Shown here: in pieces, positions 18,415-43,594 of the stretch
Position numbering within the stretch: the first letter of the stretch is position 1
How the letters are laid out: each line of letters opens with the position of its first letter
DNA from: an uncultured Candidatus Saccharibacteria bacterium
Lineage (GTDB): Bacteria; Patescibacteriota; Minisyncoccia; Phycocordibacterales; DATDWN01
Assembly: GCA_964468795.1 (NCBI GenBank)
Contig: CAYXWL010000001.1
Location: 232,246 to 296,245 of the forward strand
Length of the DNA: 64,000 bases
Reading direction: 5' to 3'
Notes under the pieces: generated by a model
Seen by the model: the letters and a program-made list of their open reading frames with translations, nothing else
Databases searched by the model: none
What the model was told of the DNA's origin: nothing
Translations under genes and position numbers: made by a program

Positions 18415-18420
18415 AGAAAA

Positions 18421-18442
18421 GCACCACGATTTTTTGTGGTGC
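18421..18442 (-). terminator. hairpin terminator at the AT/GC composition boundary
   Basis: GCACCACgattttttGTGGTGC, followed by a T-run on the minus strand. Ends the minus-strand GC-rich operon. Confidence 0.55.
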
Positions 18443-18575
18443 TGGAAGTGGTGTGCAGTCCAGATCTTTAGCATTGCGAGCGTTGGCCACCTCCTTGGTT
18501 TTCAACTTAGCCGCTCGCGTAGCGATCTGGTTACGGCTTGTGCCGTCATCCGTTCCCACTTAGGGAACGACTCAA

Positions 18576-18695
18576 TTAGTCCTCTGGCCTCTGCACATGC
18601 CTGGACCGCGATATGTTGGGAACTCCATGCAACATGAGTGCGCACTCCGCCTTTGTTACAGCGCCCTCCGCTAGAGGGTAACGTGCCGTCTTCAT
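18576..18695 (-). CDS. candidate 39-aa ORF (last gene of the GC-rich operon)
   Basis: Own translation MKTARYPLAEGAVTKAECALMLHGVPNISRSRHVQRPED, placed just after IR copy a. Below the track cutoff. Confidence 0.25.
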   Translation of the reverse strand: MKTARYPLAEGAVTKAECALMLHGVPNISRSRHVQRPED

Positions 18696-18703
18696 GGTGG
18701 AGC

Positions 18704-18745
18704 TCCCATCAAAAGTTTCAAATTATTTTAAAATCTTTGATGGGA
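18704..18745 (-). repeat. IR family copy a: TCCCATCAAA - AT-rich spacer - TTTGATGGGA
   Basis: 10-bp perfect inverted arms read directly; gene orientation is minus. Confidence 0.7.
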
Positions 18746-18885
18746 GGGCGAACAAATTTCGTTGCTCACCCATTGCACTGCGGTCTCGCCCTGCCTTATC
18801 AGCAAACGAAGTGTCTAGCTTCGTTGCTCGCTTAAGTCATTTCTGACATCAGCGAATTCGCGCAGGATCCCCGCTCAAGTTTGTG

Positions 18886-19386
18886 CTAACTCAGTCGACC
18901 CAATAAGGTTTGCCCTGTCGATACCAATCTGGCGTATGACCACCACTGACTGTAATCAGTGAGGATTTCCATACGCCAATGGCTGTCGACTCTGCCGGGA
19001 ATGGGCGGACACAATTCGATGAACGGAGATTGCTGATTGCGCAACTCCTCGTCCCTCGAAACGCGCCTCGCACACACCGGCAAAGTGACACCACTCGCAT
19101 CTTTGACGAATGCGACATTGGCACTGAGCCTCGACGAAAGTTTCCCACTGCATACTCGACCGTCTTTCTTTGGCGCAAGTAAGTTGAGAAAACTGTCGAT
19201 CGAGATAGGGCGATACCTCGTCAGGATCCGCTGCGCGTCGACGTATGTCCCGAGGTCCCAGAGAAGCAAATTGCTCTTCTCTTCGTTCCGGCGCACTTCC
19301 ATATTGCTAAAGTGACGCTCGAAAGTCTCACAAACCTCGAGGACGTTGACACTCACAAGGCGATCCCGAACGATGTAGTTTTCCAT
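18886..19386 (-). CDS. hypothetical protein (166 aa)
   Basis: Start set at MENYIVRDRL, preceded by AAAGGAGGG. GC-rich module. Confidence 0.55.
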   Translation of the reverse strand: MENYIVRDRLVSVNVLEVCETFERHFSNMEVRRNEEKSNLLLWDLGTYVDAQRILTRYRPISIDSFLNLLAPKKDGRVCSGKLSSRLSANVAFVKDASGVTLPVCARRVSRDEELRNQQSPFIELCPPIPGRVDSHWRMEILTDYSQWWSYARLVSTGQTLLGRLS

Positions 19387-19420
19387 GAGCCCTCCTTTGG
19401 GCAAAATACAGACTATTTTT

Positions 19421-19534
19421 AAAGAACTTTGGAACAATTTTGTTCCTTCAGAATACTTAACCTAGGTTAAACCCTCTGAAGGAAGTCCGAGGATATATGA
19501 CTTCCTCGGACGATACCGGGCTGACGCGCCGATA
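19421..19534 (-). promoter_or_regulatory. conserved structured leader, copy B (the homolog is at 26174..26288 on the plus strand)
   Basis: ~75 nt nearly identical to copy A: ATCGGCGCGTCAGCCCGgTATCGTCCGAGGAAGTCATATATCCTCGGACTTCCTTCAGAG. Covarying hairpins and GTTCTTT follow. Confidence 0.5.
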
Positions 19535-19544
19535 GACGTTATTG

Positions 19545-20093
19545 CTAGACTTCTCCCGAGAGATCGTTCGGATCTTCGTGGCCGTCCCACTCGGTGTCGA
19601 CATCTTCTCGCTTCCACTTGAGCCGATGGAGGACGTACTCGATCCTGCCCCTGGATTGTTTGGACAGCTTCCACTTCAACCAGCCGAACTCCTTCTCGAG
19701 CTGAGCAAGATTCTCGATCTGCCAACGCTTCAGGCAAGAAACGAGTCTTGGACTGAAGATGGATTTCGTCGAGATCTCCTCCCGAGGCCGATCTTTCAGC
19801 GAGTCGACGATGGCGTTGAAAGCCATCTCGAACTTCTGTTGCTCTACGGGCGGAGGCGGGAGTGGCTTCGGCGGTTTGCCGGCGTTCTTTCGTGCGGTGC
19901 GAACCTTACGAACTGCCTTGCGGGCAATCTGCATGATTCGCTCCTTCGTGACGGCAAACTCCTGGCCGATGTCGTTGTAGCTCATCCCTTGCGCGAGTAA
20001 GGTCAGGATTCTCTCCTCGCGGGGAGTCGTCCTCATGCGCTCGACTGGTGTGATCTCCGAAATGACAATGCCGAACAAAGTTTTTTTCTGCAA
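19545..20093 (-). CDS. sigma70 region-4-like HTH protein with an extra C-terminal domain
   Basis: TTG start after GGAG. TPREERILTLLAQGMSYNDIGQEFAVTKERIMQIARKAVRKV resembles sigma region 4. FSPRLVSCLKRWQIENLAQL weakly resembles an RpoA-CTD helix-hairpin-helix. Confidence 0.55.
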   Translation of the reverse strand: MQKKTLFGIVISEITPVERMRTTPREERILTLLAQGMSYNDIGQEFAVTKERIMQIARKAVRKVRTARKNAGKPPKPLPPPPVEQQKFEMAFNAIVDSLKDRPREEISTKSIFSPRLVSCLKRWQIENLAQLEKEFGWLKWKLSKQSRGRIEYVLHRLKWKREDVDTEWDGHEDPNDLSGEV

Positions 20094-20128
20094 TGTTTTT
20101 CTCCAAAGAACAAAGGGAAATTATTTTC

Positions 20129-20165
20129 CCGTCAAAACTCTGAAATAAATTCAAAACTTTGACGG
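20129..20165 (-). repeat. IR family copy f (variant arms CCGTCAAA / TTTGACGG)
   Basis: Preceded on the minus strand by hairpin GCCGAACttcgGTTCGGC. Followed by GGGAAAataaTTTCCC, GTTCTTT, GGAG and the start of 19545..20093. Confidence 0.6.
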
Positions 20166-20421
20166 AAGCCGAACCGAAGTTCGGCAAGTGTGATGGTAAA
20201 CTCGGAGTAGTTGTAGCCACTCTTTGCTCTTTAGGTAACTTGCGCCCTTAGCGAATACCCTGATTCCATCGCCAGACAGAATCACGGGAGAGTGGTTAAA
20301 GCTACAACTTCTAACCAACTACTCGCTCAATATGTATCACGGGCCATCACGCTCCACGACACGTCGCAACATTTTTCCTGCTCAAAAAATTCTACGATGT
20401 ACCGTGGAACTTTACAAAGAA

Positions 20422-20474
20422 CTTCTGTTTCGTCGTTTCCGACTCATCAGGTGAGACATACATCTCACGACAGG
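20422..20474 (-). ncRNA. hammerhead ribozyme, type III (HHR1)
   Basis: Minus strand: cCUGUC|GUGAGA-UGUAUG-UCUCAC-CUGAUGA-GUCG-GAAA-CGAC-GAAAC-AG. Full catalytic core, GUC cleavage site. Confidence 0.8.
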
Positions 20475-20558
20475 TGCCTTGGGTGCTAATCAAGACAAAT
20501 GATTTTTGGCCCTACTGCCCCTTGCGGGTACTCGGACCTTCTGTTGCCAAGCCGGTCA

Positions 20559-20939
20559 TTACTCCGGCTCCGTCTCCTCAAGCTGCTCTTCAGCAAGCTC
20601 GAGTTTTCTGCAGGCCTCTTCGAAGGCAACCAAGGCAGGAATGTTTCCCTTGCCCAGCTCTGGCAGCACTACGATTGGGAAGATTTCATCTCCCGTCTCG
20701 AGGTACAACCGAGAACCTTCTCCGTCGTGATGGGCGGCCCGCGAGAACTGGCGATGGCAGGAACGGCACTCGAAATAATCCAAGTCGTTCACTTCCACCG
20801 TGCAAGCTCCACAGGACGGACACCCATAACAAAGGAGTCGGCGTTGCGATTCTTCGTAGGCGAGCATTGGACACGAAGACAAGTGCTCGGACACTGACTC
20901 GTGGCAGTGTCGGCACTTTACCGTCAGTCGCAGTCTCAT
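20559..20939 (-). CDS. Cys-rich zinc-ribbon-like protein (126 aa)
   Basis: ATG at 20939, 5 nt after AGGAGG. CRHC..C..CYGCPSCGAC..CRSC motifs. Confidence 0.55.
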   Translation of the reverse strand: MRLRLTVKCRHCHESVSEHLSSCPMLAYEESQRRLLCYGCPSCGACTVEVNDLDYFECRSCHRQFSRAAHHDGEGSRLYLETGDEIFPIVVLPELGKGNIPALVAFEEACRKLELAEEQLEETEPE

Positions 20940-21315
20940 ACTCACCTCCTATTAAAGAACTTGAGACAAACCATTTGCCTCGTCATAATAATCAAAATCT
21001 TGATTTCTCTGACGAGACCCCGACTGATATTTTAGTCGGGATGTTGTGGTGGTGACTGTAAGCGATTGCAGTCACTTACAACCTTGAGATGTTCGGCGAA
21101 TTCCGAGCACCTCTTAGTGAATGTTTGGCTCCACCCGTATCCGAAATAGATACGGGAATCTGGCGCAAGCGCTGGGTGAGAATCTGCAACTCTCACGCTC
21201 TAAGCACCATTCACTCCCTCATGTATCATGGGCCACCACAGCTCCACGACACCTTGCACAACATTTTTTAGAAAAATTCTGTGCGAGATGTCGTGGATAG
21301 ATCAAAAGAACAGTT

Positions 21316-21366
21316 TCTGTTTCGTCCTTTCGGACTCTTCAGGGAGAATACACATTCTCCGACAGA
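21316..21366 (-). ncRNA. hammerhead ribozyme, type III (HHR2)
   Basis: Minus strand: CUGUC|GGAGAA-UGUGUA-UUCUCC-CUGAAGA-GUCC-GAAA-GGAC-GAAAC-AGA. Only the variable N7 differs from the other copies. Begins 6 nt after the stop codon of 21373..21651. Confidence 0.8.
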
Positions 21367-21372
21367 GCCGGA

Positions 21373-21651
21373 CTAACGTGCCGGCAACGAATAATTTTTT
21401 CTTCTCCACCTCCAAGGTTCATTTGAACCGACTCGGAACACGTAGCGGCCACACCGTGAGGTGTACCAGCCACGCGACTCGTCGGCCTTCCGCATTTTTG
21501 TGCGGAAGAAGTTACGAAGGCGACTCACATCACGCGACGTGAGCGGGCGGCCCTTGAGGACCTTTGCCCAGCTGAAGTACCCGTCTTCACGAGTGATCTC
21601 CAGCAACCGACCACCGAACCGATACTGGCCTCTTGACCACTCGCTTCCCAT
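21373..21651 (-). CDS. hypothetical basic protein (92 aa)
   Basis: ATG preceded by CTAGGAGGTATC. R/W-rich. Confidence 0.45.
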   Translation of the reverse strand: MGSEWSRGQYRFGGRLLEITREDGYFSWAKVLKGRPLTSRDVSRLRNFFRTKMRKADESRGWYTSRCGRYVFRVGSNEPWRWRRKNYSLPAR

Positions 21652-22032
21652 GATACCTCCTAGTTTTGAAAGAATAGTGGGTGTTTGCAGGATCCTCTCT
21701 GACTTTAATAGTCCGTGGCTTATCCACAGCTATTTCCTAGTGGTAACTTACCCACAAGGTCGTCTTTGATTAATCACCGCTAACATTGCACACCCGCGCA
21801 ACGCCAAGATGCCGGCAAGCATCTGGTGGATCGGAGCAAAGTTGCCTGGCCTCAGTTCTGTACGATTGCAGCCACTTTGGACTGCAATCTACCTCTCAGG
21901 CTGCCATGCCTTCGAAACACAGAAGTGTACCTTTGGCTCTGCTCCTAACGAAGATCCATCGGACTCCGGAATTTACCAAACTATTTGTCGAGCAAATTCC
22001 GAAATCCGTGAACCATTTTATTTTAAAGAACT

Positions 22033-22083
22033 TCTGTTTCGTCCTTTCGGACTCATCAGGCGAGACACTCATCTCACGACAGA
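22033..22083 (-). ncRNA. hammerhead ribozyme, type III (HHR3)
   Basis: Minus strand: UCUGUC|GUGAGA-UGAGUG-UCUCGC-CUGAUGA-GUCC-GAAA-GGAC-GAAAC-AGA. 5-bp open stem III. Confidence 0.85.
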
Positions 22084-22133
22084 CCAGGATGACGCTCTGG
22101 TAGACGTTTAGGAGATTCTGTTGCCGAGCTCTC

Positions 22134-22352
22134 CTAGTGCTCCGAGGCTGAGTCAGTGAGGATCAGCGTGGTAACCTCGGCGTAAAACGCCTCGACCTCT
22201 GGTCCACCGAACAGGGGTTTGTAAGACCCGTCGGAGTTCCGAGGCCAGATGCCTATGATGGCATCGAGCGTCGCCTTCGAGAGGTTGAATCTCTCGAAAG
22301 TCTTCCGCGCGAGTTCCTCCGAGATCCCCGTGATCTGATAGACTCTTTTCAT
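22134..22352 (-). CDS. hypothetical protein (72 aa)
   Basis: Start MKRVYQITGISEELARK after GAGGAGAGTGAC. Confidence 0.45.
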   Translation of the reverse strand: MKRVYQITGISEELARKTFERFNLSKATLDAIIGIWPRNSDGSYKPLFGGPEVEAFYAEVTTLILTDSASEH

Positions 22353-22388
22353 GTCACTCTCCTCAAAGAACTCGGAACGAACCATTCG

Positions 22389-22460
22389 TCCCATCAAAGA
22401 AATCAAGCTTTATTATTTTCTTGAAAGTAAACTTTCAAGTTGTTAATTGCTTTGATGGGA
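22389..22460 (-). repeat. IR family copy b: TCCCATCAAAG - 50-nt AT-rich spacer - CTTTGATGGGA
   Basis: 11-bp perfect arms. The spacer contains hairpin CTTGAAAgtttacTTTCAAG. Confidence 0.7.
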
Positions 22461-22566
22461 GGGCAAACGATGTTTTGTCGCTCACCCATGTTTACCCATG
22501 CTTTTACGCGGAAGGATTTTTCCACAACTTCGGTGCCTTGGCCGAAGGTTGACGCACCCAGTCGGA

Positions 22567-22743
22567 TTACTTCTTCCGATAGCCAGGCTTCCCGCCACAG
22601 GGAACGGAAACTGCTTTCACAGATTCCCGTTTTGCGGTTTTCAGCCTGCCGTCGTAGAAGTAACCAGCCCGAGCGAGGATCTTGTTGGCTTGCGCCTCCA
22701 AAGTCCTCTGATGGTTTGTGGCCACCATTGTGATTGTTGTCAT
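22567..22743 (-). CDS. hypothetical protein (58 aa)
   Basis: MTTITMVATNHQRTLEAQ.. preceded by GAGGAGGATC. First ORF after a ~370-nt leader. Confidence 0.4.
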   Translation of the reverse strand: MTTITMVATNHQRTLEAQANKILARAGYFYDGRLKTAKRESVKAVSVPCGGKPGYRKK

Positions 22744-23116
22744 GATCCTCCTCAGGATTGACTGGTTGTTAATGTAAAGAACATCGCGGGGGATGAGTTC
22801 GGGCTGGGGCCTAGTACACCGTGCAGCAACACGGGACTTCAGGCGAAAAGTGACCCCATATTGGTTTGCCTTACGCGAGATTCTTGCTCGCGCCTGGCTC
22901 CGCACACTTCCCTTGCTGAAGGGGAAGACTCCCTATGCGGTATTGAATGCCACCCTACACACCCCCACCTCAAAAGACTTGTATCTTCTGAAGCGGAGGA
23001 ATGTGTCCTCCATTTGTAAAGAAATGCACTTTGAAGTTAATTTTGATTGCGGGTCCGTGATATTTATCTGGACGGTTGCCATTCGCTAATAAAACTTAAC
23101 TTCAAGGTACACTGGT

Positions 23117-23145
23117 AGTATATACTAAACGTATATTTTTGTCAA
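23117..23145 (-). promoter_or_regulatory. sigma70-type promoter for the minus-strand GC-rich operon
   Basis: Minus strand TTGACA - 17 nt - TATACT. Confidence 0.55.
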
Positions 23146-23280
23146 GCAGTTTTGACATTTTCTTTTTATAAATCTAAAAATAGCTATAAATATAGCCATT
23201 ATATAGAATATAGATTTAATTTAACCTGACTAAACTAGTATTAAATTGACATACTAAATAAATAATTTTGTTATTTATAT

Positions 23281-23309
23281 TTGACAAATAAAATGAATGG
23301 GTATATACT
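23281..23309 (+). promoter_or_regulatory. sigma70-type promoter for the candidate ncRNA
   Basis: TTGACA (23281-86) - 17 nt - TATACT (23304-09). Confidence 0.6.
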
Positions 23310-23314
23310 TATAG

Positions 23315-23658
23315 GCAGACGAGTACCCAGGGTGTTCTTGGGGAAAGGAGGGTTCCATGCACGACTAGTGCGGGCTGGGGAACCGGGGGTTGTTAACCCC
23401 CGGTGTGGCCTCCAGTTTGGCTAGTCATAGATTGTGGAGGAAGCAAAAGTGGACGACTAGCACATAGGTGGTTCCAGTTCCATGCGTCCGACCACCAGAT
23501 AGTCAGAGGACGCGAGACAGATCATCTTCGTTCAGTTCAAGGTGGAAAATCCACCAGACAAAGAGAGAAGTGTGATTCCGTCAATCGTTCCCGGCGATTA
23601 GTCTTCGGGAACAACATGCCGTGGCGACAACTTACCGTCGCCACGGCATTTCTTATTT
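23315..23658 (+). ncRNA. candidate novel structured RNA (~340 nt) with its own promoter and intrinsic terminator
   Basis: GC-rich island between a consensus promoter and terminator ATGCCGTGGCGACaacttaccGTCGCCACGGCAT+TTTCTTATTT. Many helices, e.g. CCGGGGGUUguuAACCCCCGG and GGUGGAaaaUCCACC. Confidence 0.5.
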
Positions 23659-24393
23659 ATGATCAAAGATATATTTAATTAGGCTTTTGAGAGTGTCTGC
23701 AAACTCTTTGCTTTTTATTAAAATACCAGATGGTCTCTTTCCCAGAATAGATATTCTCACTTGGTCACCATAAACAGTAATATCGCTACTTAAAGGATAC
23801 TTCTCTGAATTTATTTTTAGCCTCTCTCCCATTTCATCTGATGGTTTATCTATATTTTTTGAAGTGTATATAGATCTAGATTTAATTCCTCTTGAAATCC
23901 TACGATCTTTTAGTCTACTTGTTTCTTTATCATCGAAAATATCCTTAACTAGATCTAAAGGATAAACTATATAAACAGGTTCATCAGGAAGTATTTTTAT
24001 AAAAGTATCATCATTTGAGCTAAGCACCCCTTCTTTACCATCAAAAAACTGAACCATTGGTTTTTCCCCTTGTTCTCTTTGGATACCTTTTAATTGTGGG
24101 ACGATAATATCTAGACCTTTTTTATTCTCTTCTAATAAGTGGATCTGTCTTTCTACGAACAAGCCAAGTTTTTCTGGAGGTTCAGCAATATAAAAAGTCT
24201 TTTTTCCAATATTTGATTCACTAACTAAACCCTTCTTCTGTAAAGATTCCAGGATCACGTATGCAGTAGGACGCTTTATCGTTGCTTTTTCGGCAATTTC
24301 AGTTACAAGAGCTTTATCAAAGGAAAGAAGAGCTAAATAAACTGCTGCTTCCTTATCACTAAGCCCAATATCTTTAAGGTATTTTTCAAACAT
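23653..24393 (-). CDS. TrmB-family transcriptional regulator
   Basis: N-terminal LGLSDKEAAVYLALLSFDKALVTEIAEKATIKRPTAYVILESLQKKGLV winged HTH. AT-rich like the host. Confidence 0.75.
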   Translation of the reverse strand: MFEKYLKDIGLSDKEAAVYLALLSFDKALVTEIAEKATIKRPTAYVILESLQKKGLVSESNIGKKTFYIAEPPEKLGLFVERQIHLLEENKKGLDIIVPQLKGIQREQGEKPMVQFFDGKEGVLSSNDDTFIKILPDEPVYIVYPLDLVKDIFDDKETSRLKDRRISRGIKSRSIYTSKNIDKPSDEMGERLKINSEKYPLSSDITVYGDQVRISILGKRPSGILIKSKEFADTLKSLIKYIFDHK

Positions 24394-25238: not shown

Positions 25239-25284
25239 AATATACCATTTTGTGCTTGACAAGTCAAGTAAAGTATGCTAGGAT
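25239..25284. promoter_or_regulatory. back-to-back divergent promoters with adjacent -35 boxes that together form a palindrome
   Basis: Plus: TTGACA(25256-61)-17-TAGGAT. Minus: TTGACT(25267-62)-17-TATATT. The -35 boxes lie in CTTGACaaGTCAAG. Confidence 0.5.
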
Positions 25285-25353
25285 AGAGGTAGTAATTCCT
25301 GTATGTATGTACAGGTCGCCCGAGAAGGGTAGGACAGAAAAAGGATGTGTCGT

Positions 25354-25662
25354 ATGACGCAGAATGCATATGATTTGAAGAAGATCGTGAACGGTCCGAG
25401 CAAGATGGACCTCATGCTGGCGATGTTCGACAGCAGCTTCCCGAATCACCGTTCAGTTGTCTTCAACTTTGAGAATGAGGGAGCGAGCAACTTCAAAGCT
25501 AGTGCTCCCTGTCACATCTCGATGGTTGAGAAGGAAGACGGTTCTGGCGAAAGCTTTAACTTCGAAGGAACTCTCTCCTACGACAACTTCCGGACAGGTA
25601 AGAGGGTGCGTGGTTGCTATAACACCATGCGCCGGACTGGCTTCTTCCACTTCGTGCAGTAG
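25354..25662 (+). CDS. hypothetical protein (102 aa)
   Basis: MTQNAYDLKKIVNG.. after AAAAAGGA. Confidence 0.45.
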   Translation: MTQNAYDLKKIVNGPSKMDLMLAMFDSSFPNHRSVVFNFENEGASNFKASAPCHISMVEKEDGSGESFNFEGTLSYDNFRTGKRVRGCYNTMRRTGFFHFVQ

Positions 25663-25690
25663 TTCTTCTGGGCGAGTTGTTAACTCGCCC

Positions 25691-25730
25691 TCCCATCAAA
25701 GTAATTAAATTTTTGATTTCTTTGATGGGA
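25691..25730 (+). repeat. IR family copy c
   Basis: GGGCGAGTTgttAACTCGCCC hairpin, then TCCCATCAAAG-18 nt-CTTTGATGGGA. Confidence 0.7.
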
Positions 25731-25782
25731 CAATTTGGTCCCGATTTGTTCATTTCAATTTTCAGTGCCCAAAGGAGGGCCC

Positions 25783-26154
25783 ATGATCAACGAACGTGGT
25801 GAGTTTATTCGCGAGACGGCAGCTCCTTCTACCAAGGAAGTCACCACGAAGAATTACATGGTCAACGTGGTCACTTCATCGCTCAAGGATATTCTCAGTG
25901 GACACAACCTGATCAGCGACATGAACCAGGTTATCCTTCTCCAGTTCGGACCTTGCTCGGAAGAGGAAGGTGACGCTCTGGCGGATCGGATCAACGCGTG
26001 GGTTCGTGGGGGTGAAGGTCGTGGTCCTGCTGAGGCATTCCGGATTCTGGGACTGCACCAGAAGACGGGAGATGTGTGGGCGTCTTGCGACCCGATCCCG
26101 ACGGCTGGCATCTCGGAACTTCTCCAAAAGTTCCAGGTGAAAACCACTGTTTGA
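25783..26154 (+). CDS. hypothetical protein (123 aa)
   Basis: MINERGEFIRE.. after AAAGGAGGGCCC. Confidence 0.5.
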   Translation: MINERGEFIRETAAPSTKEVTTKNYMVNVVTSSLKDILSGHNLISDMNQVILLQFGPCSEEEGDALADRINAWVRGGEGRGPAEAFRILGLHQKTGDVWASCDPIPTAGISELLQKFQVKTTV

Positions 26155-26173
26155 TCAACATAAAGATCCGTCC

Positions 26174-26288
26174 ATCGGCGCGTCAGCCCGATATCGTCCG
26201 AGGAAGTCATATTATCCTCGGACTTCCTTCAGAGAGTTCAACTTTGTTTGAAAATTCTGAAGGAACGAATAGTTCGTTCTGGTTCTTT
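26174..26288 (+). promoter_or_regulatory. conserved structured leader, copy A
   Basis: ATCGGCGCGTCAGCCCGATATCGTCCGAGGAAGTCATATTATCCTCGGACTTCCTTCAGAG ... TTCTGAAGGAACGAAtagTTCGTTCtgGTTCTTT, then GGGGAGG and ATG at 26302. Confidence 0.5.
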
Positions 26289-26301
26289 GGGGAGGTACAC
26301 C

Positions 26302-26520
26302 ATGTTCGTCAGCAATACCACGATTTTTCACTGCCCGATGTTCGGGTGCGGTCACGAAAACGAACGTTCGAACCGCACGAAGCCGGAAGACATCGTTTGC
26401 GAAGGATGTCACGCACCTTGGTGGCCGATGGAACTCGGTTTCATTGGAAATGATCCGAAAGAAAACATCGAGTTCGCACGGACTCATGATCGGAAAGGAA
26501 ATCTTCGTGAGCTGGCGTAA
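26302..26520 (+). CDS. zinc-ribbon-like small protein (72 aa)
   Basis: MFVSNTTIFHCPMFGCGHENE..CEGCHAPWW. Confidence 0.45.
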   Translation: MFVSNTTIFHCPMFGCGHENERSNRTKPEDIVCEGCHAPWWPMELGFIGNDPKENIEFARTHDRKGNLRELA

Positions 26521-26550
26521 TTCTTCTGGGCGAACGTAATTTGTTCGCCC

Positions 26551-43146: not shown

Positions 43147-43533
43147 GGGGATGACAGGTTTTGACATAAGGACGACATTGATTCGTGCAATGCGGAGCTT
43201 CGATAACTCCTGAAACTGTCGAAAACAATAAGTGTAAAAAACTTATCTAAGGGCATTGCGTCTCCTTTTGGAAACGCATTCGCTTTCTCACCAGCACTAG
43301 CATAAGCTAACTCGGTAAGACGGTCATTTCCATGATACCTCTATATGGAAAATGATTGATATAAAACGAGGTTAGGATAAAAGACTGTTCCGACTCTTGT
43401 CCGAAAAATAGGAACTCGATCACAATGTATTTTGTTTGTTCCAAGCATTGTGGTTTAACACACTAAACAATCTACGCACTGTAGAAACGCTTCAATTCTC
43501 TTTATGGACGTGGTTTCGATACCACCATCTCCA
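43147..43533 (+). ncRNA. ssrA: tmRNA (ssrA)
   Basis: 5' GGGGATGACAGGTTTTGAC. 3' tRNA-like GGACGTGGTTTCGATACCACCATCTCCAC. Tag frame ..GCATTCGCTTTCTCACCAGCACTAGCATAA (..AFAFSPALA*). Confidence 0.85.
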
Positions 43534-43594
43534 CAAAAAAACAGAACGCCATTTATGGCATTCATCAAAAAACTCCCGTTCGGGAGTTTTTTGA

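Follow-up and report, generated by a model that had tools for sequence, protein, structure and literature searches.

What kind of RNA is specified by a strongly promoted, GC-rich unit of about 340 nt that resembles no known RNA family? The question is raised by positions 23315-23658 of a 64,000-nt stretch of DNA, here called the window, from an uncultured Candidatus Saccharibacteria bacterium (assembly GCA_964468795.1, contig CAYXWL010000001.1, positions 232,246 to 296,245 of the forward strand). A preliminary description made from the sequence had proposed a stand-alone RNA gene with no likely protein product, transcribed divergently from an operon with hammerhead ribozymes. We found that the RNA is a member of a family, not catalogued before, that occurs widely in Parcubacteria (Patescibacteria, or Candidate Phyla Radiation, CPR), and we are highly confident that the gene is real, conserved and of a new family. 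The label "purely non-coding" is probably wrong: at the level of sequence, the most conserved elements of the family, above its helices, are two modules that each consist of a Shine-Dalgarno (SD) sequence, a start codon, one free codon, an aspartate codon and a stop codon.

The transcription unit itself is well delimited by the following features:

23281..23309, plus strand: sigma-70-type promoter TTGACA-17-TATACT, 11/12 consensus positions, with the transcript start at ~23316.
23316..23658, plus strand: RNA gene of ~340 nt and 53.5% GC, defined by the promoter, the fold and the nhmmer homologues.
23616..23658, plus strand: intrinsic terminator, with a T-run after a 13-bp stem (23616-23649) that includes 9 GC pairs.

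The promoter had the top score in a scan of a 10-kb region, and the GC content of 23315-23658 compares with 19% in the upstream spacer, 32% in the next gene and 41% in the window, so that the promoter and the terminator-bounded GC-rich unit of the preliminary description both held up. The U-run of the terminator overlaps the last codons and the stop codon of a convergent gene for a TrmBL2-like protein; relatives retain the lower part of its stem (UGCCGUGG/CCACGGCA), with CUGUGG/CCACAG in locus L012. The predicted minimum free energy (MFE) of the RNA is -144.5 kcal/mol, with z=-5.9 relative to shuffled sequences. The minus strand folds equally well (z=-6.0), and folding energy alone thus gives no choice of strand. 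The plus-strand orientation is instead indicated by promoter and U-run, by the numerous G-U pairs of the conserved helices, which are compatible with the plus strand only, and by the features of structure and short open reading frames (ORFs) described below.

A GTG ORF at 23403..23678 had been listed as the only one in the unit and its product judged unlikely. This 91-aa ORF exists, but it is one of two table-11 ORFs of at least 40 aa that overlap the unit, the other being a 47-aa TTG ORF (23281..23424). The longest ORF per homologous RNA spans 21 to 85 aa, indicating that a long ORF is not conserved. For the long ORF the earlier judgement therefore stands, while the two SD-led Met-X-Asp-stop ORFs had been overlooked. 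All three stop codons end long ORFs of the window (TAA 21, TAG 7, TGA 6), as expected for the standard code, and an alternative code with TAG or TGA as sense brought no convincing gain for the RNA region and the GC-rich operons.

Homologues were gathered with an alignment of proteins homologous to the adjacent 246-aa TrmB-like protein as the anchor. These homologues share 36-80% identity and come from organisms named Zambryskibacteria, Paceibacterota, Minisyncoccia and Parcubacteria, which identifies the window as CPR DNA; they led to 160 loci, 80 from species-representative genomes and 80 from metagenomes, with the Hainich and Rifle groundwater sets among the sources. Among these TrmB-anchored loci, ~91 distinct homologous RNAs were picked by the pattern of promoter and mini-ORFs. 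A search by nhmmer with the RNA of the window detected syntenic homologues directly downstream of the anchor gene and on the opposite strand (loci L004, L006, L007, L009, L010 and others), and in the other loci a unit of the same make-up occupies this position: after the promoter comes a GC-rich transcript 220-400 nt long, ending in a terminator that extends over the anchor gene's stop codon. Every homologous RNA is preceded by a promoter of the form TTGACA-N17-(TG)nTAnnnT. An exact look-up of the neighbouring protein returned three metagenome contigs only, which are 99.9-100% identical to the window, with an identical RNA region in all three. Neither a DNA similarity search of phage and plasmid collections nor an exact 21-mer scan of viral contigs gave a match.

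A scan of both strands of 23315-23658 against Rfam 15, which includes RNase P, the signal recognition particle (SRP) RNA, 6S RNA, transfer-messenger RNA (tmRNA), T-boxes, riboswitches, group I and II introns and OLE, ROOL, GOLLD and raiA RNAs, returned no match at the gathering score or at E<=10, in line with the lack of any recognised family in the preliminary description. The homologous RNAs of 13 related loci likewise had no Rfam match, ARAGORN predicted 0 tRNA or tmRNA genes in 23200-23750, and full-text literature searches found no description of such a CPR RNA.

The two modules that set this family apart lie in the 5´ half of the window RNA, as follows:

23344..23352, plus strand: Shine-Dalgarno sequence 1 (AAAGGAGGG), 4 nt upstream of AUG, a conserved purine block in 52 RNAs.
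23357..23368, plus strand: mini-ORF 1, AUG CAC GAC UAG (Met-His-Asp-stop).
23436..23443, plus strand: Shine-Dalgarno sequence 2 (GGAGGAAG), 5 nt upstream of GUG, conserved in 33 RNAs.
23449..23460, plus strand: mini-ORF 2, GUG GAC GAC UAG (Met-Asp-Asp-stop).

The stretch AAAGGAGGG-N4-AUG, previously read as part of a helix, has the sequence of a ribosome-binding site, and both SD1 and the AUG of mini-ORF 1 are single-stranded in the MFE fold of the window RNA. Across the 52 RNAs, mini-ORF 1 starts with ATG in 50 cases and with GTG and TTG in one each; codon 2 is unconstrained (His, Asn, Ser, Phe, Glu, Gln, Gly, Trp and others); and the third codon is GAC (45) or GAT (7), followed by TAA, TAG or TGA. 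The pattern recurs in mini-ORF 2, for which the 33 RNAs have ATG (22), GTG (10) or TTG (1) as the start and GAC (26) or GAT (7) as codon 3. The aspartate is kept at codon 3 even where a fourth sense codon follows (MGDT, MNDY, MHDL, MGDR and similar).

Two controls indicate that this signature is not an artefact of the search pattern. In a census of SD-led three-codon ORFs on both strands of 1.1 Mb, the third codon was GAC in 52 cases and GAT in 8, with any other codon occurring at most 3 times, and almost all matches lay immediately 3´ of the anchor TrmB gene. When no stop codon was required, a stop nonetheless followed SD-start-X-GAY in 195 of 282 instances (69%), compared with 1-3% for Glu, Asn or Lys as codon 3. 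In distant lineages the mini-ORFs extend up to ~11 codons and the third codon may differ, jointly in both ORFs: L050 has Met-His-Gly and Met-Trp-Gly, L051 has Met-Asn-Gly and Met-Ser-Gly-..., and in L067 the third codon is His in both (Met-Asp-His and Met-Asn-His). Start, aspartate and stop are thus kept as classes of interchangeable codons, and both ORFs change together. Since these are hallmarks of decoding, we infer from the sequences that the mini-ORFs are probably translated.

The mini-ORFs are built into a covarying RNA structure, whose elements in the window RNA are, from 5´ to 3´:

23326..23342, plus strand: 5´ hairpin CCCAGG-GUGUU-CUUGGG (MFE fold).
23363..23369 with 23420..23426, plus strand: helix P1, GACUAGU (the Asp and stop codons of mini-ORF 1) with GCUAGUC.
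23371..23380 with 23409-23419, plus strand: helix P2, CGGGCUGGGG with CCUCCAGUUUG, the latter containing an anti-SD-like CCUCC (MFE fold).
23382..23404, plus strand: hairpin P3, ACCGGGGGUU-GUU-AACCCCCGGU.
23467..23513, plus strand: H-type pseudoknot downstream of mini-ORF 2.
23467-23472 with 23491-23496, plus strand: pseudoknot stem A, GGUGGU with ACCACC, 87% paired, 3 covarying pairs.
23484-23489 with 23508-23513, plus strand: pseudoknot stem B, GCGUCC with GGACGC, 100% paired, 2 covarying pairs.
23520..23578, plus strand: long irregular hairpin with an apical GGUGGA-AAA-UCCACC (23541-23555), followed by a purine-rich tract (MFE fold).
23587..23612, plus strand: hairpin GUUCCCG..CGGGAAC (MFE fold), GCUCCC/GGGAGC in L004.

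Support for the helices was assessed on an alignment of the window's subfamily (A2, 16 sequences), and the covariation analysis that had been suggested for homologues bore out P1, P3 and both pseudoknot stems. P3 (CCGGGGGUU..AACCCCCGG) was 95.7% paired and showed compensation at 8 of its 9 pairs, and P1 had 85.7% of cells paired, a change from UAG to UGA being compensated by a change from CUAGUC to UCAGUC or CUUGGUC; support for P2 was weaker (53-59% paired). When the partners of the pseudoknot stems were slid as a control, pairing fell to 22-55%. Among the helices listed in the preliminary description, P3 and three further ones were kept with compensatory changes, the latter judged by eye in the homologue sequences: CCCAGG/UCUUGGG (ACCGG/CCGGC, CUCGG/CCGAG and CCAGG/CCUGG in relatives), GGUGGA/UCCACC (GGCGGA/UCCGCC and GGCGA../..UCGCC) and GUUCCCG/CGGGAAC. 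The GCACgacuaGUGC helix is lineage-specific and also competes with the conserved P1, and the GGUUCCAUGC repeat (23351-23360, 23470-23485) turned out to be lineage-specific as well. As for the H-type pseudoknot, its GGUGGU/ACCACC stem is supported, but the conserved partner of the second stem is the downstream GGACGC (23508-23513) and not the upstream GGACG, which lies inside mini-ORF 2. Stem A begins 6-7 nt past stop 2 in 9 of 11 relatives, which, estimated from known ribosome geometry, is about where the leading edge of a ribosome terminating at stop 2 would be.

In other subfamilies, the hairpin that follows mini-ORF 1 has NNCAUNN in its apical loop, a sequence complementary to positions -2 to +5 around the start codon. 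CAU is found at +28 to +58 in 51 of 91 RNAs, and in these 51 the flanking positions -2, -1, +4 and +5 are paired in 82-88%. This flank pairing averaged 5.08 of 9, compared with 3.63 +/- 0.16 when the loops were permuted among sequences, and 0 of 2000 permutations reached the observed value. In the RNAs with this loop-start pairing, the SD also lies opposite a downstream CCUCC, and GAC opposite GUC. The loop-to-start-codon pseudoknot was not evident in the window's own subfamily. Many non-Zambryski members (L014, L015, L027, L035-L046 and others) carry at the 5´ end an additional hairpin whose asymmetric bulge is conserved, CUUAAA(A) (…UGGUGGGC-loop-GCCCUUAAAANNNNGCCACC…), which is not present in the RNA of the window; a preQ1-like identity for this hairpin was dismissed, as no Rfam match was obtained at E<=1.

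Given these features, we regard the RNA as a small-ORF-bearing regulatory RNA, with a real chance that it stands for a new class of sensors of tRNA or ribosome status. Our best explanation, a translated, ribosome-sensing regulatory RNA, is held tentatively when taken as a whole, and the specific mechanism of a ribosome-driven switch, which draws on modelled folds, is possible but doubtful. According to this proposal, the RNA would be remodelled by ribosomes as they read the mini-ORFs. On arriving at stop 1, a ribosome that had initiated on mini-ORF 1 would have to open P1 and P2, and in the window RNA this opening could liberate CCUCCA (23409-23414) to mask SD2 (UGGAGG). When the region of mini-ORF 1 was held open in a constrained fold, the CCUCCA of P2 indeed re-paired with SD2. 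A ribosome terminating on mini-ORF 2 would come up against the pseudoknot 6-7 nt further on and open it. The RNA would thus report, through its fold, ribosome activity or the decoding of Asp-tRNA, analogous to the three-codon upstream ORF (uORF) in the vmlR leader, and its outputs might be an action in trans of the 3´ domain, a change in RNA stability or an influence on the neighbouring regulator or operon. In the window's subfamily the mini-ORF codons are mostly Asn or His together with Asp, and a link of the mini-ORFs to the sensing of mature tRNA(Asp) is conceivable.

Several observations weigh against this explanation. In many subfamilies the predicted native fold has the SD, AUG and GAC all in base pairs, which could equally mean that ribosomes never read them, and the toggle between CCUCCA and SD2 is shared by no more than about half of the closest relatives. 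Downstream of the RNA there is no gene in the sense direction, the next gene being convergent, and no antiterminator was seen, the terminator forming in all four ribosome-masking folds of a thermodynamic model for one sequence. With a terminator that survives every masking fold and no sense gene, a classical attenuation output is not supported. In addition, the aspartate at codon 3 is near-invariant, whereas the sequence of the vmlR uORF is flexible (PMC9226507). Finally, the linkage of RNA and TrmB is partly built into the sample, since the homologues were gathered via the TrmB neighbour.

The observation that start signals are sequestered in many members raises the alternative that the RNA is an untranslated structured decoy or sponge, in which the SD-like sequence, AUG, GAY and UAR are elements of recognition or pairing. 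Such an RNA would mimic an initiation region through SD:anti-SD and AUG:CAU duplexes and bind a protein or idle 30S subunits. This is what the pairing in most subfamilies suggests, with the start region opposite a hairpin loop, the SD opposite a downstream CCUCC and GAC opposite GUC, and both the high degree of structure and the lack of a downstream gene fit as well. Pairing alone, however, would let the triplets covary freely, yet AUG/GUG/UUG, GAY and the three stops are kept as classes. The third codon switches jointly in both mini-ORFs of one RNA, as expected for decoding, and SD1 and the AUG are single-stranded in the window's own subfamily. We consider a decoy unlikely.

Translation itself, or the tripeptide, might instead be the purpose of the RNA, which we think quite unlikely. 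In one version, a cis-acting peptide would remodel or clean its own ribosome, like the rRNA-encoded pentapeptide minigene that confers macrolide resistance; in the other, the mini-ORFs would act like the lambda bar minigene, the second precedent, and sequester peptidyl-tRNA(Asp) together with ribosomes, throttling growth. We know of no tripeptide with a function of such a kind, which counts against both versions. Position 2 is not constrained, many members have their start site buried in structure, and the locus has no link to antibiotic resistance or to pth. What speaks for a role of the peptide is the residue fixed at position 3 regardless of codon 2 or the position of the stop, together with the very strong promoter and the presence of two mini-ORF copies per RNA. 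A further parallel is ErmBL, which arrests with peptidyl-Asp in the P site (PMC8274638).

Some of the further explanations involve the surroundings of the RNA, in which the following features were identified:

23653..24393, minus strand: convergent gene for a TrmBL2-like winged-helix DNA-binding protein of 246 aa (Pfam TrmB, E=5.9e-16).
23117..23280, no strand assigned: shared AT-rich control region of ~170 bp, conserved across species.
23145-23117, minus strand: mirror promoter of the hammerhead operon, with identical hexamers.
23140-23157, in the control region: palindrome TGTCAAGCAGTTTTGACA, formed by back-to-back TTGACA boxes.
23181-23198, in the control region: imperfect palindrome TAGCTATAAATATAGCCA.
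18420..23116, minus strand: divergent operon of 4.7 kb and 51% GC, with small ORFs that have good SDs; associated with the RNA, not part of it.
22031-22085, 21314-21368 and 20422-20476, minus strand: three type III-like hammerhead ribozymes between small ORFs of the operon.

The order of TrmBL2-like gene, mini-ORF RNA and divergent multi-hammerhead operon is conserved. An AlphaFold2 (AF2) model of the TrmBL2-like protein (pLDDT 87.8) had as its best Foldseek match in the PDB the archaeal chromatin protein TrmBL2 (5bpd, E=1e-11, full length). The gene adjoins the RNA in ~90 loci, and the genes upstream of it vary (ClpP, S15, XerC-like and others, judged by eye from the N-termini of translated ORFs). 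Both palindromes of the control region are candidate operators for the TrmBL2-like protein.

The divergent pairing with the hammerhead operon, which the preliminary description had pointed out, is real and conserved. The three hammerheads of the window match Rfam Hammerhead_3 at E values from 2e-7 to 1e-6 and 41-44 bits, slightly below the gathering score of 48.5. At the corresponding position of related loci there are homologous small proteins as well as GC-rich sequence. Strict hammerhead cores numbered 71 in 416 kb of divergent flank and 2 in 1.58 Mb elsewhere, a ~130-fold enrichment; at least one core was present in 30 of the 61 loci with at least 2.5 kb of divergent flank, and up to 9 occur in L027. 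This kind of operon is found at the same locus in many Parcubacteria, and its linkage to the RNA, unlike that of TrmB, is not built in by the sampling. A scan of the operon's proteins against PHROGs matched only a sigma-70 region-4-like protein, and a phage origin of the operon was rejected.

Taken together with the mini-ORFs, this arrangement would accommodate a more ambitious version of the proposed ribosome-sensing RNA, namely a stand-alone sensor of a new class, whose coding capacity would be limited to two conserved Met-X-Asp ORFs, whose signal would be their decoding by ribosomes, tRNA(Asp) and release factors, and which would govern the hammerhead operon together with the TrmBL2-like protein. 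We consider this full version somewhat unlikely.

The same arrangement could also point to a ribosome-dependent attenuator that regulates antisense transcription into the convergent TrmBL2-like gene, with sense read-through in a rare tandem arrangement. Terminator and TrmB stop codon overlap tightly in a convergent layout that has been conserved, candidate operators lie within the shared promoter region, and in L077, the sole tandem case among the 160 loci, the RNA is upstream of TrmB in the same orientation with a terminator between them. The terminator, however, is a perfect 13-bp GC-rich hairpin that forms in all four masking states with no competing antiterminator, and the adjacency may stem from genome compaction and the TrmB-anchored sampling, leaving this explanation very unlikely.

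Far less probable again is a divergent housekeeping RNA, be it RNase P, SRP, 6S, tmRNA or an intron-containing tRNA(Asp/Asn). Size and GC-richness would fit, and Patescibacteria are known to have tRNA(Asp/Asn) genes with group I introns that standard tools miss (PMC13011429). The negative Rfam (E<=10, the window and 13 related loci) and ARAGORN results led us to reject the intron-containing tRNA, and no acceptor, D-arm or T-arm sequences are visible. An ordinary one-piece tmRNA was found at 43147-43536 on the plus strand (Rfam, 111.8 bits), and the RNA studied here is therefore not the tmRNA of this genome.

Equally improbable is an accessory RNA of the diversity-generating retroelement (DGR) nearby, an idea suggested by the 16/17 complementarity of 23506-23522 (GAGGACGCGAGACAGAU) to the 3´ end of the template and variable repeats (TR and VR; AUCGGUCUCGCGUCCUC, 32208-32224 / 30865-30880) and by the unusual layout of the element, in which a hairpin and U-run follow the TR and an antisense avd lies between the TR and the gene for the reverse transcriptase (RT): we estimate that ~0.1-0.3 such matches are expected by chance across the window (blastn E=0.097), and the segment serves as the 3´ strand in pseudoknot stem B, with only GGACGCGA of it kept in relatives, so that the complementarity is probably a chance match. 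A role as DGR template or spacer RNA was rejected, as the TR and VR are located elsewhere and the 17-nt complementarity is not conserved.

The DGR itself extends over 30849-33719. Its RT is split into two ORFs (32629-33719, plus strand), avd is at 32278-32628 on the minus strand, the TR (32114-32231, sense plus) is directly followed by the hairpin and U-run, and the VR (30855-30972) forms the 3´ end of a GC-rich target gene on the minus strand (30849-31784). A large serine recombinase (29426-30757) and a tRNA (33795-33883) beside the element suggest an island.

A second GC-rich operon is present at 25256-27806 on the plus strand, with a promoter at 25256-25284 and a terminator at 27777-27806. 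It contains small ORFs without a family match, and no hammerhead core was detected in it. The two GC-rich operons have in common an intergenic hairpin, GCCCUCCCAUCAAAG-(AT-rich loop)-CUUUGAUGGGA (18704-18753, 22389-22468, 25685-25733, 26545-26593 and 27171-27220), with a small hairpin and the motif AGUUCUUU often coming after it. An intergenic segment of ~100 nt is also nearly identical between them (19439-19538 and 26169-26269, 84-95%).

CPR/Patescibacteria make up a large share of bacterial diversity and, to our knowledge, almost nothing is known of their gene regulation. Here, a strongly promoted RNA conserved in several candidate classes has a clear signature, two ribosome-binding sites that each precede a three-codon ORF with a fixed aspartate. 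If translated, the mini-ORFs would be among the shortest conserved ORFs we know and would offer a simple model for how ribosome or tRNA status becomes a conformational signal in RNA. If not, the RNA would act as an internal mimic of the initiation complex, no less unusual a case. Should the sensor proposal be true, a third codon that changes to Gly or His in both mini-ORFs at once would mean that the sensor is tuned to a given tRNA or amino acid. The family would also offer a way into the biology of clustered bacterial hammerheads, which is still unexplained.

The RNA is similar to tiny-uORF leaders, minigenes and dual-function sRNAs, yet appears to lack at least one defining feature of each. 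For its neighbourhood, the precedent is the clustered hammerheads that flank genes in prophage regions (Perreault et al., 2011, PMC3088659), which the neighbouring operon, with several type III-like hammerheads between short genes, resembles. This likeness concerns the operon and not the RNA, and the operon differs in being at a fixed chromosomal locus in many Parcubacteria with no PHROG or phage signal. Dual-function sRNAs such as SgrS/SgrT, RNAIII/hld and SR1/SR1P have ORFs that encode peptides of 26-43 aa. Like them, the CPR RNA is a structured, stand-alone transcript from promoter to terminator that carries a small ORF, but its ORFs have 3-4 codons (up to ~11 in the distant lineages).

Minigenes, among them lambda bar and the pentapeptide "E-peptide" encoded in 23S rRNA, act via the translating ribosome or peptidyl-tRNA. 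They share with the CPR RNA an SD, a start, one to five codons and a stop within an otherwise non-coding RNA, and the arrangement of the lambda bar type (SD, AUG, one to three sense codons and a stop) is found here. Known minigenes, however, are isolated cases from single genomes or selected mutants, whereas the CPR family spans classes of a phylum and has a fixed residue and conserved flanking structure.

The closest analogue is the vmlR leader of Bacillus subtilis, where a three-codon uORF with its own SD sits at the foot of a stem-loop and ribosomes stalled on it remodel the RNA (PMC9226507). Of the features of a leader-peptide or vmlR-type attenuator, the CPR RNA has SD-led short ORFs near the 5´ end and an ORF that overlaps an arm of a conserved helix; no mutually exclusive antiterminator was seen in the folds modelled for one sequence, and a regulated gene downstream on the same strand is missing. 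It differs from vmlR in having its own promoter as a stand-alone RNA, with no antiterminator detected and no sense gene after the terminator, and in having two mini-ORFs with a near-invariant third codon (Asp), while the vmlR uORF is Met-Ile-Asn and MIN, MDN and MDK are all functional (PMC9226507). Translation of the tiny ORF is what counts in vmlR (PMC9226507), and the CPR RNA resembles it in its single-stranded SD, in a three-codon ORF whose 3´ part lies at the base of a stem-loop, and in the further stem-loops and intrinsic terminator that follow.

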